A stretch of 64,000 nucleotides of DNA from Patulibacter sp. (GTDB lineage Bacteria > Actinomycetota > Thermoleophilia > Solirubrobacterales > Solirubrobacteraceae). Shown here in pieces: positions 3,863-48,379 of the stretch. Numbering within the stretch: position 1 is the first letter of the stretch; every line of letters begins with the position of its first letter. Made by a program: the position numbers and the translations under genes. The DNA is taken from NCBI RefSeq assembly GCF_030655195.1, contig NZ_JAURWA010000009.1, forward strand, positions 3,850 to 67,849, given 5' to 3'. The notes under the pieces are model-generated. The model had not been told where the DNA came from. It did no database searches and saw nothing but the letters and a program-made list of their open reading frames with translations.

Positions 3863-4718
3863 CGCCGGCCAGGCCGTCGGCGACGCCCGGCGGCGCGGTC
3901 ACCAGCAGCTCGTAGTCCTCCCCGGCCGTCGCGGCCAGCTCCGCGGGGTCCTGCCCCGTGGCCCGGGCGACGGCGTCGACGCCGGCCTGGCGCGGCAGCC
4001 GGGCCAGGTCGACGTCCACCACGACCCCGGACGCCCGCCCGAGGTGCCCGGCGTCGGCGGCGACCCCGTCGGAGAGGTCGATCCCGCAGCGCACGCCGGC
4101 CGCCGACAACGCGACGCCCTCGTCCAGCCGGGGCAGGGGCCGCAGGTACCGCTCGACGAGCGCCGGCCCCTCCGCGGGGCCGGGCGCCCGGCCGAGGACG
4201 ATCGCGAGGCCCGCCCCGCTCCCGCCGAGCGACCCGGTGACGCCGACGCGGTCGCCCGGCCGGGCACGGTCGCGACGCAGCAGCGCCTCGGGACCGGGAG
4301 CCCAACCGACGACGGTGACCGTGATCACGAGGACGGGGCCGGCGGTGACGTCGCCGCCGGCGATCGTCGTGCCGGTGCGCAGCGCGAGCTCCTCCATCGC
4401 CGCGACGGCGCCGAGGACGTCTGCATCGCCCCAGTCCGGGGGCACGGTCAGCGCGACGTACGCCTCGCCGGCCGCCACGCCCATCGCCGCCAGGTCCGAG
4501 AGCGCCGTGGCGAGCGCGCGGTGCCCGACGACCGCGGGCGTCGCCCGCGGATCGCCCGCGGGCAGGTGCACGCCCATGACGGTCGTGTCGGTGCTCGTGA
4601 CCGCCAGCGCGCCGGCGGGACGGACGACGGCGGCGTCGTCGCCGGGCCCGATCAGGAGGCGGTCGTCACGGGCCGTGAGGCCCGCGGTGAACGACCGGAT
4701 GAGTGCGCGTTCGCCCAC
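3750..4718 (-). CDS. thiL: Thiamine-monophosphate kinase
   Basis: [44 protein letters not shown]. Confidence 0.93.
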
Positions 4719-43720: not shown

Positions 43721-43758
43721 CCTCGGCCTCCGGAGGGGTCCGCTACCGTTGGCCTCCG

Positions 43759-44079
43759 GTGCGGCCAGGTCTCCACATCTCGCGGGTCCTCTCGGCGCTG
43801 GCGGTCCTCGCGGCGCTGGCGCTGGCCGTGCTCGAGGCGCCCCAGGTGGCGCTGCTGCTCGGGCCGGCGTTCCTGCTGCTGCTGATCCTCGTCGTCGGCG
43901 TGTTCCCCGGCGAGGAGGCGATCGCCCGTGCCAGGGCCCGCCGGTCCCGCGCCCGCCGCACCCGGGCGCCCGTCCGGGTCGCGCCCCCCGCACTGCCGGA
44001 CGTGGCTCGTCCGGCCGGCGCCGCGCTCGCGTTCGCGCTGGCGATGCGTCCGCCACCGGCGGCCGCCGTCTGCCGCTGA
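43759..44079 (+). CDS. Small 2-TM upstream ORF ending in ..LAFALAMRPPP.. (leader/arrest-peptide candidate)
   Basis: 106 aa, GC3-rich; GTG 9 nt after TACCGT; C-terminal part of track ORF 42634..44079. Confidence 0.65.
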   Translation: MRPGLHISRVLSALAVLAALALAVLEAPQVALLLGPAFLLLLILVVGVFPGEEAIARARARRSRARRTRAPVRVAPPALPDVARPAGAALAFALAMRPPPAAAVCR

Positions 44080-44414
44080 GCGCGCTCTCGGTCCTGGTGG
44101 ACCGGGCAGCCCACCCGTCGTAGCGACCGGGCCCCCGAGAACGGGGGTCCGTGCCTCCGGCGGCCTCACCGGCGGCAGGGCGCACCCGCGCCCGCAGCAC
44201 GACCCGACCGCCGCTCACGGTCCCTCCCCCACGCCGCCCCTCAGCGGGCGGACGGGCGGGCCCGCGAACACGGCCCCCGACCGACGCCGCCCCTGCGCCG
44301 CGCGGTCGCGCCATCGGTCCGTCGCGCCCCGGAGCCGACGAGGCCCGCCGAGAACGGCGGCCCGTCCCCGACGGGGCTGCGCGAGACCGGGCCCAGCCAT
44401 CCCTTCCGCCGGAC
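44080..44414 (+). promoter_or_regulatory. 335-nt structured leader with repeated AGAA-loop hairpins
   Basis: CCCCCG-AGAA-CGGGGG (44132-44147) and CCGCCG-AGAA-CGGCGG (44345-44360). Confidence 0.4.
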
Positions 44415-45887
44415 ATGACCACCGACACCTCACCCCCACCTCCCGCTCCGCTCACCCTCCCGACCCCAGCAGCACCGCCGGCGCCCACGCCCGGTGCGAG
44501 CCCGCGCCGATCCTCCGCGCGACCGCTCGTCCTGCGCCTGCACTTCTACGCGGGCATCCTCGTCGCCCCGCTCCTGGTGGTCGCCTGCATCACCGGGCTG
44601 CTCTACACGACGATGCCCCAGGTCGAACCGCTCGTCCACCGCAAGGAGCTGCACGTCAGCGCCCCGGCCGGCGCGCAGCGGATCCCCCTGATCGATCAGG
44701 TCCGCGCCGCCCGCGCGGCCTACCCCCAGGGCACCATCTCGTCCGTCGCGCCGTCCGATCGGGCCGACCGCACCACGCGCGTCAACCTCGCGGTGCCCGG
44801 CGTCCGCGAGGGCTACCAGCGCACCGTCTTCGTCGACCCCTACACCGGCCGGATCCAGGGCAACGTCGAGACCCTCGGGCAGTGGCTGCCGGTGCGGGTG
44901 TGGTTCGACGACCTCCACCGCAACCTCCACCTCGGCGACGTCGGCCGGCTCTACAGCGAGACGGCCGCGAGCTGGCTGTGGGTCGTCGTCCTCGGCGGCC
45001 TCTACCTCACCTGGCGCCGCCGCCGCGACGAGCGACGCCGGCGTTCCCCCGCCGCGGGCGCGCCGCCCCGGGTCCTCGCCCGTCTGCGGACGATGCGCTG
45101 GCACCGCACGATCGGGGTCGTCGCCGCGATCGGGTTGCTCGGGCTCTCGGCCACGGGCCTGACGTGGTCGAAGTACGCGGGCGAGAACGTCTCCGAGCTG
45201 CGGTCGACGCTCTCGTGGACGACCCCGACCGTCGACACGGGGACGGGGGCCTCCGACGAGCACGCCGGCCATGCGGGACACGGGGCCGCCGCGACCGGCG
45301 GGCCGGGCGGCGACCAGGAGCTGCAGCGCGTCTCCGCCATCGACGACACCGTCCGGACGGCCCGGACCGCGGGTCTCGTCGACCCCATGGTGATCACGCC
45401 GCCCGCCGCCGAGGGCGGCGGCTGGTCGGTGCAGGAGAACCACCGTCGCTGGCCCGAGCGCCAGGACGCCGTGGCGGTCACCCCACCCGGCACCGCGGTC
45501 ACGGACGTCTCCCGGTTCGACGACTGGCCGATCGGCGCCAAGCTCACGAGCTGGGGCGTCGACGCCCACATGGGGCTGCTGTTCGGTCTCGCCAACCAGC
45601 TCGTCCTCGCGGCGCTGGCGATCGCGCTCCTTTCCCTGATCGTGCTCGGCTACCGGATGTGGTGGCAGCGCCGCCCCAAGCACGCCACCGGCGTGCGACC
45701 CGGCAGGCCGATCCCGCGCGGCGCGTGGCGCCACCTGCCGTGGAAGGTGCTCGTGCCGAGCGTCGTCGTGGTCGCCGCGATCGGCTGGTTCGTCCCGCTG
45801 CTCGGGATCACGCTCGTGGCGTTCCTCGTCCTCGACGCGGTGATCGGCGCGACGCGACGACCCCGTGCGCGGAAGCGCCCGGCATGA
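44415..45887 (+). CDS. PepSY-associated TM helix domain protein (heme-b reductase-like)
   Basis: LRLHFYAG, VFVDPYTG, DLHRNLHLG, RWHRTIG, DAHMG; His-rich DEHAGHAGH. Confidence 0.9.
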   Translation: MTTDTSPPPPAPLTLPTPAAPPAPTPGASPRRSSARPLVLRLHFYAGILVAPLLVVACITGLLYTTMPQVEPLVHRKELHVSAPAGAQRIPLIDQVRAARAAYPQGTISSVAPSDRADRTTRVNLAVPGVREGYQRTVFVDPYTGRIQGNVETLGQWLPVRVWFDDLHRNLHLGDVGRLYSETAASWLWVVVLGGLYLTWRRRRDERRRRSPAAGAPPRVLARLRTMRWHRTIGVVAAIGLLGLSATGLTWSKYAGENVSELRSTLSWTTPTVDTGTGASDEHAGHAGHGAAATGGPGGDQELQRVSAIDDTVRTARTAGLVDPMVITPPAAEGGGWSVQENHRRWPERQDAVAVTPPGTAVTDVSRFDDWPIGAKLTSWGVDAHMGLLFGLANQLVLAALAIALLSLIVLGYRMWWQRRPKHATGVRPGRPIPRGAWRHLPWKVLVPSVVVVAAIGWFVPLLGITLVAFLVLDAVIGATRRPRARKRPA

Positions 45888-45948
45888 GCCGCGACCGCCG
45901 GACCGCCCACCCCTCCCCGCCCGTCTCCCCCGACACCAAGGACCCCCG

Positions 45949-46596
45949 ATGACCCCCCTCACCCGCACCACGAGCACCGCCCTGGCCGTCTCCGCACTCG
46001 CGCTGGGCGCGGTCGGCTGCGGCTCCGACGACCAGAGCTCGAACGTCTCGGCGTCGGGCACCAGCGCGACCACCTCGACGTCCGGCCACAGCGGCCACGA
46101 CATGTCGTCGATGGGCTCCGGCGCGCCCAGCCAGGCCGACCAGCAGGCCGTCGCGTCGTCGATGCGGATGGAGCGGCTGGGCAGCGCGACCGCCGGCGAC
46201 CGCAAGGTCGAGCTGGACGCGTCCGAGCCGGTGACGTTCGGCGTGTACGAGGGCGACCGCCTCGTGCAGCACGCCCCGCGCAAGGGCGAGAACGCCCACG
46301 TGATGCTGACGCTGTCGGACGCCCGGACCGGCGACCGGCTGCCGGACGCCACGATCACGCTGCGGGTCATCGACCAGGCCGGCAAGGTCGTCGCGTCGGG
46401 CCCGCAGTACCCCATGATCGGCATGGGGATGGGCATCCACTACGGCGACAACGTCACCATCCCGAAGGCCGGGAAGTACACCGCGCAGCTCGTGGTCGGG
46501 CCGCCGCGGATCGGCCGGCACGCCGACGTCGAGGGCCGCTGGAACACCACCGTGAAGGCGACCATCCCGTTCACCTGGAAGGGCGCCGCGCGATGA
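45949..46596 (+). CDS. Lipoprotein with P19/Tpd/FtrA-like iron/copper-binding motif
   Basis: Lipobox LGAVGC; GHSGHDMSSMG; HVML, YPMIGMGMGIHYGDNV, GKY, PP.IGRH.D. Confidence 0.75.
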   Translation: MTPLTRTTSTALAVSALALGAVGCGSDDQSSNVSASGTSATTSTSGHSGHDMSSMGSGAPSQADQQAVASSMRMERLGSATAGDRKVELDASEPVTFGVYEGDRLVQHAPRKGENAHVMLTLSDARTGDRLPDATITLRVIDQAGKVVASGPQYPMIGMGMGIHYGDNVTIPKAGKYTAQLVVGPPRIGRHADVEGRWNTTVKATIPFTWKGAAR

Positions 46597-47837
46597 GGCT
46601 CACCCGACGCCGGCTGCTGCTCGGCGGTGCCGCCGCCGGCGCCACCGGCGTCGGGGCGGCCGTGGCCGCGACCGCCGGCGGTCACACCGACCAGCAGCCG
46701 CCGGCCGCCGCGCTGCCCGCACCCGCCACCGGTGAGGTCCGCCAGCACGCCTGGGACACCGCGCTGCACCACGACGAGCACGGCAACGTCCTGCCGCCGC
46801 GGTTCCAGCGCCTCGTGCTCTGCGAGCTCGCCGGAGACCCGACACCGGACCGCGCCCGCGCGGCGGAGGCGGCGCTGCGCCGTCTCGAGCACGCCGTGCC
46901 GGCCGGCCCGGAGGGCGTCCTCCTCACCGTCGCGTGGGGACCCTCCTGGTTCCGGCGCGTCGGGGTGCCGTCGCCGATCCCCGCTGCGAAGGCCCTCAGC
47001 CCGGTCGAGGCGCCGACGATCGACGACCCCGCCGCGATCGTCCACCTCGCCTCCGACGACGAGGCCCTCCTGGACCGCGTCGAGCGGGCGCTGTTCGCCG
47101 GAGGCACGCTCCCCGGCGCCCGCGGCCCCGTCGCCCTGACCGGGCTCCTGCGGGTGCGCACCCGGCGCACCGGGTTCGTCGGAGCCGGCCTCCCGCGCGC
47201 CCACCAGCGCGACACCGTCGGACTGCCGACGGACCGGCCGATCGCCCGGTCCGCCCCGCTCTACATGGGCTTCCAGTCCGGTCTGCGGAAGAACCAGGCC
47301 ACCGAGGACGACGTGACCATCGAGGACGGTCCGTGGGCCGGCGGCACGACGATGCACGTCTCCGCGATCGACCTCACCCTGGACACCTGGTACCACGGCG
47401 TCGACGACGCCGGACGCGTCCGCCGGATGTTCGCCGCCGACCGCGCCCCGCAGGACGTCCGGGACCACCCCACCGGCCTGCCCAACCCCGACCGGGACCT
47501 CGCCGCCGTCGCGAAGCAGCGTGGCGTCGTCGGCCACGCCGAGTCGATGGCCGCCGTCCGCCGCAACGGGCGACCCCGGATCATCCGGCGCGACTTCGAC
47601 AGCCGCGACGGCGACGCCGCACAGGTCCACTTCGTCGCCCTGCAACGGTCGATCGCGGACTTCGAGGTCACCCGCGCGGCGATGAACGCGGCGCGCGCCA
47701 CGAACGAGCAGGCCGGCGTCGGCGCCCAGGTCAACAACGGCATCAACGAGTGGATCACCGTCACCGCCCGGGGCAACTACCTCGTCCCTCCACGCCCGCG
47801 ACGCGTCTGCCCCGGCCTGCCCGGATGGGACGCATGA
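46593..47837 (+). CDS. Tat-exported DyP-like (dimeric alpha/beta barrel) heme protein
   Basis: Tat motif LTRRRLL; YMGFQSG, GVVGHA (proximal His), IIRRDF (distal Arg), HFVALQ, RGNYLVPP. Confidence 0.75.
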   Translation: MRLTRRRLLLGGAAAGATGVGAAVAATAGGHTDQQPPAAALPAPATGEVRQHAWDTALHHDEHGNVLPPRFQRLVLCELAGDPTPDRARAAEAALRRLEHAVPAGPEGVLLTVAWGPSWFRRVGVPSPIPAAKALSPVEAPTIDDPAAIVHLASDDEALLDRVERALFAGGTLPGARGPVALTGLLRVRTRRTGFVGAGLPRAHQRDTVGLPTDRPIARSAPLYMGFQSGLRKNQATEDDVTIEDGPWAGGTTMHVSAIDLTLDTWYHGVDDAGRVRRMFAADRAPQDVRDHPTGLPNPDRDLAAVAKQRGVVGHAESMAAVRRNGRPRIIRRDFDSRDGDAAQVHFVALQRSIADFEVTRAAMNAARATNEQAGVGAQVNNGINEWITVTARGNYLVPPRPRRVCPGLPGWDA

Positions 47838-48379
47838 ACGTCCGGTCGACCCTCGCCCTGGCGCTGGCCACGGCGGCGGCGCTGTTCGTGCCGGCGACCG
47901 CGGGCGCGCACGGCGGGATCATCCTGGCGAGCACCACCGCCGGCCCCTACCGCGTGCAGGTCGCCGGAGCGCCGCTGACGGAACCCGGCAGACCCCCGGC
48001 GATCGACGTGACCGTCTACGTCGCCAACGCCACCTCCGGCAGCCCGGTGTCGGGCGCCAACGTACGGACCACCGTCACCGCGGACGAGCGGACCGTCACC
48101 CCCGACGTCCGCGAGATCGCCGGCGGCTACGAGGCGATCGTCCCGGTCCGCGACGCCTACACCGTCGGACAGCAGACCATCGACGTCCGCGTCGCCGGGC
48201 CGCTGGGGACCGGGCGGGTCACCGTCCGACCGACCGACGACCAGGACACGGCTCCCACCGCGCTGATCGTCGGAAGCGCAGCGCTCCTGAGCCTCCTCGT
48301 CGCCGTCGCGATCCGCGTCCGCCGCCGCCGCGGCGGCGGCGATACCGAGGCCGACGTGTGGCCCGACGCCGCGGCGTGA
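47834..48379 (+). CDS. Exported, C-terminally anchored Ig-like protein with predicted N-terminal His
   Basis: Signal peptide ending AGA then HGG; beta-rich core; TM followed by RVRRRR; ATGA overlap. Confidence 0.75.
   Translation: MNVRSTLALALATAAALFVPATAGAHGGIILASTTAGPYRVQVAGAPLTEPGRPPAIDVTVYVANATSGSPVSGANVRTTVTADERTVTPDVREIAGGYEAIVPVRDAYTVGQQTIDVRVAGPLGTGRVTVRPTDDQDTAPTALIVGSAALLSLLVAVAIRVRRRRGGGDTEADVWPDAAA

Follow-up and report, generated by a model that had tools for sequence, protein, structure and literature searches.

Copper-responsive arrest leaders have been established only between 2022 and 2025, and every studied example has Cys or His ligands. The kind is already known from CruR (2022), from CutF (2023, 2025) and from a survey of December 2025 with its tests in S. 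lividans. CruR homologues head PepSY_TM, YcnI, CopC and MbnPH genes in proteobacteria, the spacing between the CXXC and the RAPP of CruR is conserved, and in this system the nascent RNA has been shown to be shielded from Rho-dependent termination (PMC9426467). Moreover, the PepSY_TM gene of the CruR operon encodes CrpH, a protein on which the function of haem-copper oxidase draws support (PMC13038864). According to the December 2025 survey, genes for small secreted or membrane proteins with RAPP or RGPP motifs precede copper genes, with an enrichment before those for YcnI, PCu(A)C and PepSY, and the uORFs before YcnI genes in Actinomycetota mostly encode TM proteins (PMC12992588). The same work describes RxPP with x = G, A, S or P as arrest-inducing, reports that Ala-to-Pro variants of ApdA and ApdP retain partial activity, and finds that the RAPP and RGPP motifs resist EF-P (PMC12992588). 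In E. coli assays, RPPP is the strongest XPPP staller, and its stalls are relieved by EF-P (PMC4176338).

Here we compare with these systems a small ORF of Patulibacter sp. that lies in the window, by which we mean the whole stretch of 64,000 nucleotides that was analysed (Table 1). We assign a probability of roughly three in four to the reading that this ORF is a cis-acting RxPP arrest-peptide leader and the first cistron of a near-leaderless copper-operon transcript. As such, it would be a functional analogue of CruR and CutF and of the actinobacterial RAPP/RGPP leaders.

Table 1. Coordinates of the candidate arrest leader, its flanks and the operon behind it, as positions of the window.
Feature	Position	Strand	Basis or remark
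-10-like hexamer TACCGT	43744..43749	+	9 nt before GTG start; no Shine-Dalgarno
Leader ORF, 106 aa, candidate ribosome-arrest peptide	43759..44079	+	GTG start 43759, TGA 44077-44079
Two predicted TM helices, residues 3-26 and 28-49	43765..43905	+	AlphaFold2, hydropathy, conserved residues
FPGEE at cytoplasmic end of TM2, then Arg-rich helix	43903..43974	+	family alignment
Candidate arrest module: helix AALAFALAM, then R97-P98-P99-P100	44014..44058	+	invariant residues
Variable six-residue tail and TGA stop	44059..44079	+	tail length and sequence among family members
Untranslated leader, 335 nt	44080..44414	+	no codon periodicity
PepSY_TM membrane protein, first structural gene, no Shine-Dalgarno	44415..45887	+	PF03929, E = 4.7e-71
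P19-like Fe2+ transport lipoprotein	45865-46596	+	Pfam
Tat DUF7405/DyP-like protein	46593-47837	+	Pfam
Exported protein with C-terminal TM anchor	47834-48379	+	no Pfam match

The frame at 43759-44079 is confirmed as a real and conserved coding gene. The GC contents at codon positions 1, 2 and 3 are 0.88/0.59/0.92 in the ORF versus 0.86/0.80/0.78 in the 335-nt leader, and 47 differences from the orthologues fall at third positions, compared with 26 and 19 at the others. The original prediction described an ORF of 106 aa with two TM segments, a basic linker and AFALAM-RPPP near the C-terminus, and both its coordinates and its content proved right in the translation and in the AlphaFold2 model. 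With the family alignment as input, AlphaFold2 (mean pLDDT 76) predicts helices at residues 3-26 and 28-46, which form the TM hairpin, at 52-68, which is the Arg-rich helix, and at 86-95, which corresponds to AALAFALAM; the TM helices are joined by a loop of a few residues that carries a conserved Pro. The RPPP itself occupies residues 97-100 (44047-44058), with six residues left before the stop. Searches of Pfam and NCBIfam with the ORF returned no match, and a PADLOC-type family signal was absent.

The ORF belongs to a family that is large and lineage-specific. A word-indexed search returned 31 clusters, all of about 105 aa, with E values down to 4e-51 and with names from Patulibacter and Solirubrobacteraceae only, and of 1.84 billion representatives searched with a profile, 741 matched at E<=1e-3. 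In the alignment of the 31 clusters, in which the lowest identity to the ORF of the window is 37%, the residues G47, G51, R57, A93, L94, A95, R97, P98, P99 and P100 are invariant. The residues F49, P50 and E52 of the FPGE motif are nearly invariant and its G51 is fully so, and the conserved residues of the TM region are A31, L32, P36, A37, L40, L44 and G47. No column of conserved Cys, His or Met was found in an alignment of 56 members. Among the genomes of the family Solirubrobacteraceae, the profile matched 23 of 61, often with two to four copies each, and in a sample of the phylum it matched three of 201, all three inside the order Solirubrobacterales. The leader family is thus confined to this order in the genomes sampled, and its range looks narrow. 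A metagenome scan with the single protein of the window returned no match, and a scan with the alignment returned only relatives at <=55% identity. Where a genome has two to four copies, each copy heads a different copper operon. The genome to which the window belongs has three copies, namely that of the window, one before a YcnI gene and one that is cut by a contig end.

The case for arrest begins with the motif itself. The original prediction proposed an arrest peptide and named conservation of a C-terminal R-x-P-P among homologues as a check, and the motif is kept in essentially all of them, with x only P, A or G. It was found in 174 of 178 inspected representatives (of the 741), at 1-12 and mostly 3-10 residues from the end. 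The homologous column of 88 distinct copies in the fetched loci reads RPPP in 70, RGPP in 10, RAPP in six and NAPP in one, with no motif in the remaining copy, so that 86 of the 88 have P, A or G at position x. In 84 of the 87 motif-bearing members, the stop follows 2-12 residues past the motif, and beyond a first Ala or Val the C-terminal tail is unconserved. The conservation includes A-[FS]-A-L-A-x just ahead of RxPP. Across the family, the Arg and Pro codons of the motif vary freely among synonyms, so it is the peptide that is under selection, and not an RNA motif. These patterns suggest that the motif behaves as an arrest core, unlike an RNA element or a chance run of prolines. The rare Pro codons CCT and CCA are enriched about 2.4-fold at the motif, with a nominal p of about 1e-3 for sequences that are kin and therefore not independent. 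The genome encodes EF-P (228 bits), and RPPP stalls are relieved by this factor, so the putative stall could be brief.

The motif also stands at a nearly fixed distance from the membrane segment. In 173 of 198 members, 45-47 residues separate G51 of FPGE, at the end of TM2, from R97 of RxPP. Force-profile work with arrest peptides places in such a range of distances the pull that a hydrophobic segment exerts on the nascent chain as it inserts into the membrane. A tie between membrane insertion and the RPPP is plausible because this distance is fixed. The residues of TM2 are conserved beyond the need of a pure force sensor, and the protein could therefore have a role of its own.

The geometry of the 5' end suggests that translation begins close to the start of the transcript. 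Among 52 members, a TANNNT word ends 6-12 nt before the start in 31, compared with 1.3% of control windows, and a motif resembling a Shine-Dalgarno (SD) sequence stands ahead of the start in only four. The most enriched upstream word in the family is the -35-like TTGCGC. With a -10 box close to the start and no SD, the leader ORF probably opens a near-leaderless transcript as its first cistron, despite a gap of only 38 nt between the VanZ gene and this ORF. The genes upstream differ by species, and the locus of P. americanus lacks the TetR and VanZ genes present in the window. A sigma-70 consensus promoter was not found at the window locus, and a search for operators in the upstream regions of the family found only the -10 and -35-like words. 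The absence of an IdeR/DtxR-type box, which the original prediction had noted, holds on closer inspection, in that the best site has 10 mismatches of 19.

Behind the leader ORF, the gene content points to metal handling. The PepSY_TM gene starts with the ATG at 44415 (MTT...), and its N-terminus is the same in the orthologues of two other species. Beyond this gene, the operon of the window extends over 45865..48379, with the same gene order in locus L002, and the genes for P19 and DUF7405 stand directly behind a family member in loci L003 and L050. In every PepSY orthologue locus of the genus with a readable upstream flank, a co-oriented family member lies ahead, three of them with RPPP and two more distant ones with KRGPP, which bears out the synteny with PepSY_TM genes that the original prediction had named as a further check. 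A co-oriented copper-type gene lies within 1.3 kb downstream in 73 of 78 members, a set defined by a stop near the motif and a downstream flank of at least 700 nt; these counts are drawn from genome and metagenome scans that give the context of a minority of the 741 representatives, they stem from related genomes and are not independent, and the downstream start codons are estimates. The downstream types are PepSY_TM, P19-like with DUF7405, MbnP with the di-haem peroxidase MbnH, YcnI (DUF1775) and CopC, and a further recurrent operon has two unnamed proteins followed by CopC and YcnI. These copper-type genes belong to several unrelated families. The leader family precedes MbnPH, YcnI and CopC more often than PepSY_TM, and the genes behind it are for the most part those that also follow CruR homologues and RAPP/RGPP uORFs. 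The family-wide association points to copper, although the operon of the window also looks iron-related, and we consider copper more likely than iron as the metal behind the family. Since there is no conserved metal ligand, it is from the neighbouring genes only that the link to copper is drawn.

Several observations concern the downstream proteins. The operon that is commonest behind the leader opens with a pair of proteins that belong to no known family (L005:6185-7444, with homologues in L001, L006, L009-L012, L014, L015, L017, L018, L025, L030 and L036), and CopC and YcnI come after them. The first of the two unnamed proteins has about 350 residues and a weak carboxypeptidase-regulatory-like domain, and a PDB sequence search with the unnamed downstream proteins u420 and u482 returned no match. 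Both unnamed proteins before CopC and YcnI are candidates for new copper-uptake components. The product of 47834-48379, which ends in a TM anchor, is predicted to have a mature chain that starts with His after AGA/HGG, and this layout may resemble that of copper proteins with an N-terminal His brace, among them YcnI and CopC. An Atlas lead to DUF6412 (score 0.90) was dropped because it was absent from 41 genomes of the order and from the control genomes; no mention of DUF6412 was found in the literature.

Some copies of the family are unusual. At MbnP/MbnH loci, family ORFs occur in tandem (L016:6011-6631; also L047, L054, L061, L067, L069 and L074), in which the first ORF ends in ...ALAMRPPPV.. 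and the second, of about 90 aa, ends in ...RTFRGPPIFAA; such pairs would be a double arrest leader. The second copy in the genome of the window (G000:C34:22874-23113, minus strand, which equals L086 at about 4375-4614, minus strand) reads ...GAGVASRPPPRRRS..., and its frame is open for more than 500 codons across the following YcnI gene (DUF1775, E = 1.7e-40), which means a lost stop, a frameshift or an assembly error. Two further members are likewise without a nearby stop; that of L049 runs in frame into the signal peptide of YcnI, and that of L070 continues into a VKOR-like segment. The contig of an uncultured Solirubrobacteraceae (L008) holds five family members in 5 kb on both strands, which face YcnI, PepSY_TM and DUF4383 genes, and one of them has RPPR where the others have RPPP.

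The intergenic leader of the window is long, and the evidence for structure in it is weak. The original prediction spoke of a structured leader of 335 nt; the length is correct, whereas the structure is weakly supported by a marginal fold (MFE z = -2.1 versus shuffles) and is unconserved in two orthologous leaders. In these two, sequence conservation stops at the stop codon and the length is held at about 270-355 nt; at other loci of the family, the lengths are at least 45-300 nt for the most part, these figures being lower bounds. The leader of the window is composed of 47% C and 35% G, with a C/G ratio of about 1.6-1.7 over 44180-44340, a modest bias that the coding regions share. It has no Rfam match and no intrinsic terminator, and conserved RNA structure, a terminator and anti-SD pairing were all looked for at the window locus and not found. 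The start of PepSY_TM (44395-44417 and the equivalents in L078 and L079) is without an SD in three species, 270-355 nt into the transcript. Two GC hairpins with a GAGAAC loop lie at 44131-44148 and 44344-44361; only 34 such hairpins exist on both strands of the 4.55-Mb genome, so two within 213 nt are unexpected, and neither of the orthologous leaders (L078 and L079) has them. One fold showed a long-range helix that joined the stall codons to the start of PepSY; it was rejected, as it vanished once the flanks were longer and was also missing in the orthologue. In three of 14 short-leader loci, the RxPP codons (CCUCC-like) pair with the SD of the next gene, and as a general rule such pairing was rejected on this count.

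Taken as an arrest leader, the ORF would work as follows. Once R97-P98-P99 has reached the P site and Pro100 the A site, the next peptide bond would fail to form, in a manner likened to that of the RAPP/RGPP arrest motifs and of RPPP polyproline stalls. During the stall, the upper exit tunnel would contain AFALAM, with the Arg-rich helix deeper down, and TM2, 46 residues upstream of the stall, would be just out of the ribosome and entering the membrane. The duration of the stall would then set the expression of the genes behind the leader. Because the leader of the window is long, C-rich, unconserved and without an SD, the most likely output here would be that the nascent RNA is shielded from Rho-dependent termination; the genome encodes a Rho-like protein with the Rho RNA-binding and N-terminal domains. 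For the paralogues with short leaders, the output could be the unmasking of the ribosome-binding site of the next gene. The signal would probably be copper supply, because the controlled genes are of copper-acquisition types family-wide, and expression would be expected when copper is scarce. Since Cys, His and Met are not conserved, copper is probably not bound through classical ligands, and sensing may go via force on TM2, via a membrane partner or via EF-P.

Three other accounts must be weighed against the regulated arrest leader. The lack of metal-ligand residues, the TM hairpin at a fixed distance from the stall site and the fact that almost every downstream gene encodes an exported or membrane protein would fit a stall that is real but constitutive, with copper sensed elsewhere, for example by a transcription factor. 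The nascent TM hairpin would in that case tether the transcript to the membrane, so that the exported and membrane cuproproteins behind the leader would be made there, or the long SD-less leader would stay free of Rho. We hold this to be unlikely, given that a search of the upstream regions found shared promoter-like motifs only and no operator, that the restriction of such a device to copper genes would go unexplained, and that the characterised analogues CruR and CutF are sensors themselves. The ORF might instead encode a small membrane protein of the usual sort, active once it is released, such as an assembly factor or a partner of copper-handling membrane proteins, with the RPPP as a protein-interaction or stability motif. 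In favour of this account, TM2 and FPGE are conserved at specific residues and the AlphaFold2 helical hairpin is confident. However, the strongest conservation falls on a peptide-bond-blocking motif just before a variable tail, x is limited to the arrest-competent P, A or G, several copies per genome each head a different operon, and no Pfam, NCBIfam or PADLOC-type family signal was found, which makes a released protein quite improbable as the explanation.

Least credible, in our judgement, is the idea that what the leader monitors is the translation apparatus, for instance EF-P activity or proline supply, and not a metal. It would then be a polyproline pause like those of EF-P-dependent regulators, and RPPP is indeed a classic EF-P-dependent stall, the regulation by CutF depends on EF-P, the factor is present in the genome, and rare Pro codons are enriched 2.4-fold at the motif. 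Relatives in the family nevertheless carry RAPP or RGPP in the same column, which are EF-P-resistant motifs (PMC12992588), and the association is specific to copper genes; we therefore regard this account as very unlikely.

Within the arrest-leader reading, a bolder idea is worth stating even though we find it doubtful. An arrest leader might report copper without any metal-binding residue, or the nascent hairpin might mainly hold cuproprotein mRNA at the membrane. In the ligand-free version, the insertion machinery, or a membrane partner that depends on copper, would pull or not pull on the TM hairpin at its fixed distance. For the holding of mRNA at the membrane, XBP1u offers a parallel in eukaryotes. 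If either version were true, bacterial arrest peptides would have a principle of sensing or targeting that is new, and the family would represent a modular "peptide cis-element" placed before several unrelated operon types in one order.

Whichever mechanism applies, a family of 741 cluster representatives without ligands poses the question of how a nascent chain senses copper, or what else it senses. Its compact design, with 106 aa, a fixed spacer of 46 residues and a leaderless geometry, lends itself to testing, and the natural variants at position x (P, A or G), the tandem copies and the short and long leaders lend themselves to comparison. The annotation is also corrected, in that these ORFs are now "hypothetical proteins" or are uncalled. 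Moreover, the family ORFs mark the copper regulons of Solirubrobacterales, including two operon genes without a known family.

Compared with CruR, the ORF of the window has much in common. Both head a copper-acquisition operon that includes a PepSY_TM gene, both have an N-terminal membrane or export segment, a C-terminal arrest motif (a candidate one here) and a fixed spacing between that motif and a conserved upstream element, and both are followed by a long intergenic region without translational coupling (PMC9426467). With the CruR/CutF family as a whole, it shares a proline-rich putative arrest motif a few residues before the C-terminus (RPPP at 97-100 of 106) and the position as first gene of a copper-homeostasis operon with a long intergenic region, here of 335 nt. 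The differences from CruR are equally clear. CruR belongs to DUF2946, and the leader family is not a member of it; DUF2946 (PF11162) gave no match for the ORF of the window at E<=0.01 or for any of 31 family members at E<=10, nor was it found in the genome. There is no CXXC, RPPP takes the place of RAPP, and the organism lacks an outer membrane and a TonB receptor. The original prediction had already remarked that the CxxC of CruR is absent from the ORF, and the family extends this remark to all conserved Cys, His and Met. Without a CxxC, such a ligand column or DUF2946, the earlier description of the switch as "analogous but differently sensing" fits.

CutF of Rhodobacter capsulatus (PMC9973294, bioRxiv 10.1101/2025.02.05.636593) resembles the proposed leader in stalling at a C-terminal PPP with the involvement of EF-P, in requiring co-translational membrane targeting, and in controlling a downstream copper gene through the stall. 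In contrast, CutF carries a Sec signal that is cleaved off and a CxxxC that lies in the periplasm, and it activates a detoxifying oxidase at high copper via a short SD-masking stem-loop, whereas the window has acquisition-type genes and a leader of 335 nt in which no such stem-loop was found. SecM, MifM, VemP, ApdA, ApdP and ApcA share with the ORF an N-terminal TM or signal segment and a C-terminal arrest sequence, which is putative in our case. Unlike these monitors of Sec and YidC, the ORF is followed by copper genes and not by sec or yidC.

The closest relatives in kind may be the small RAPP/RGPP proteins (EMBO J 2025, PMC12992588; SLIV_16130 and SLIV_18480 of S. lividans were tested), with which we compare the family by description. 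Common to both are an R-x-P-P core placed shortly ahead of the stop, TM segments, an origin in Actinomycetota, a size below 300 aa (106 here) and a co-oriented copper gene downstream (here the PepSY_TM/P19 operon), and 16 of the 88 relatives of the ORF carry RAPP or RGPP in the same column. The copy of the window and about 80% of the family nonetheless have RPPP and not a literal RAPP or RGPP, so searches for the latter two motifs miss the family. Furthermore, two TM helices are predicted here, and neither a signal peptide nor four TM helices, and the S. lividans examples have predicted copper sites, whereas Cys, His and Met are not conserved in this family. What is new here, as read from the sequences, is a putative arrest core of the RPPP type, a short form with two predicted helices, and a family-wide lack of ligand residues in an element that otherwise closely resembles the leaders described so far.
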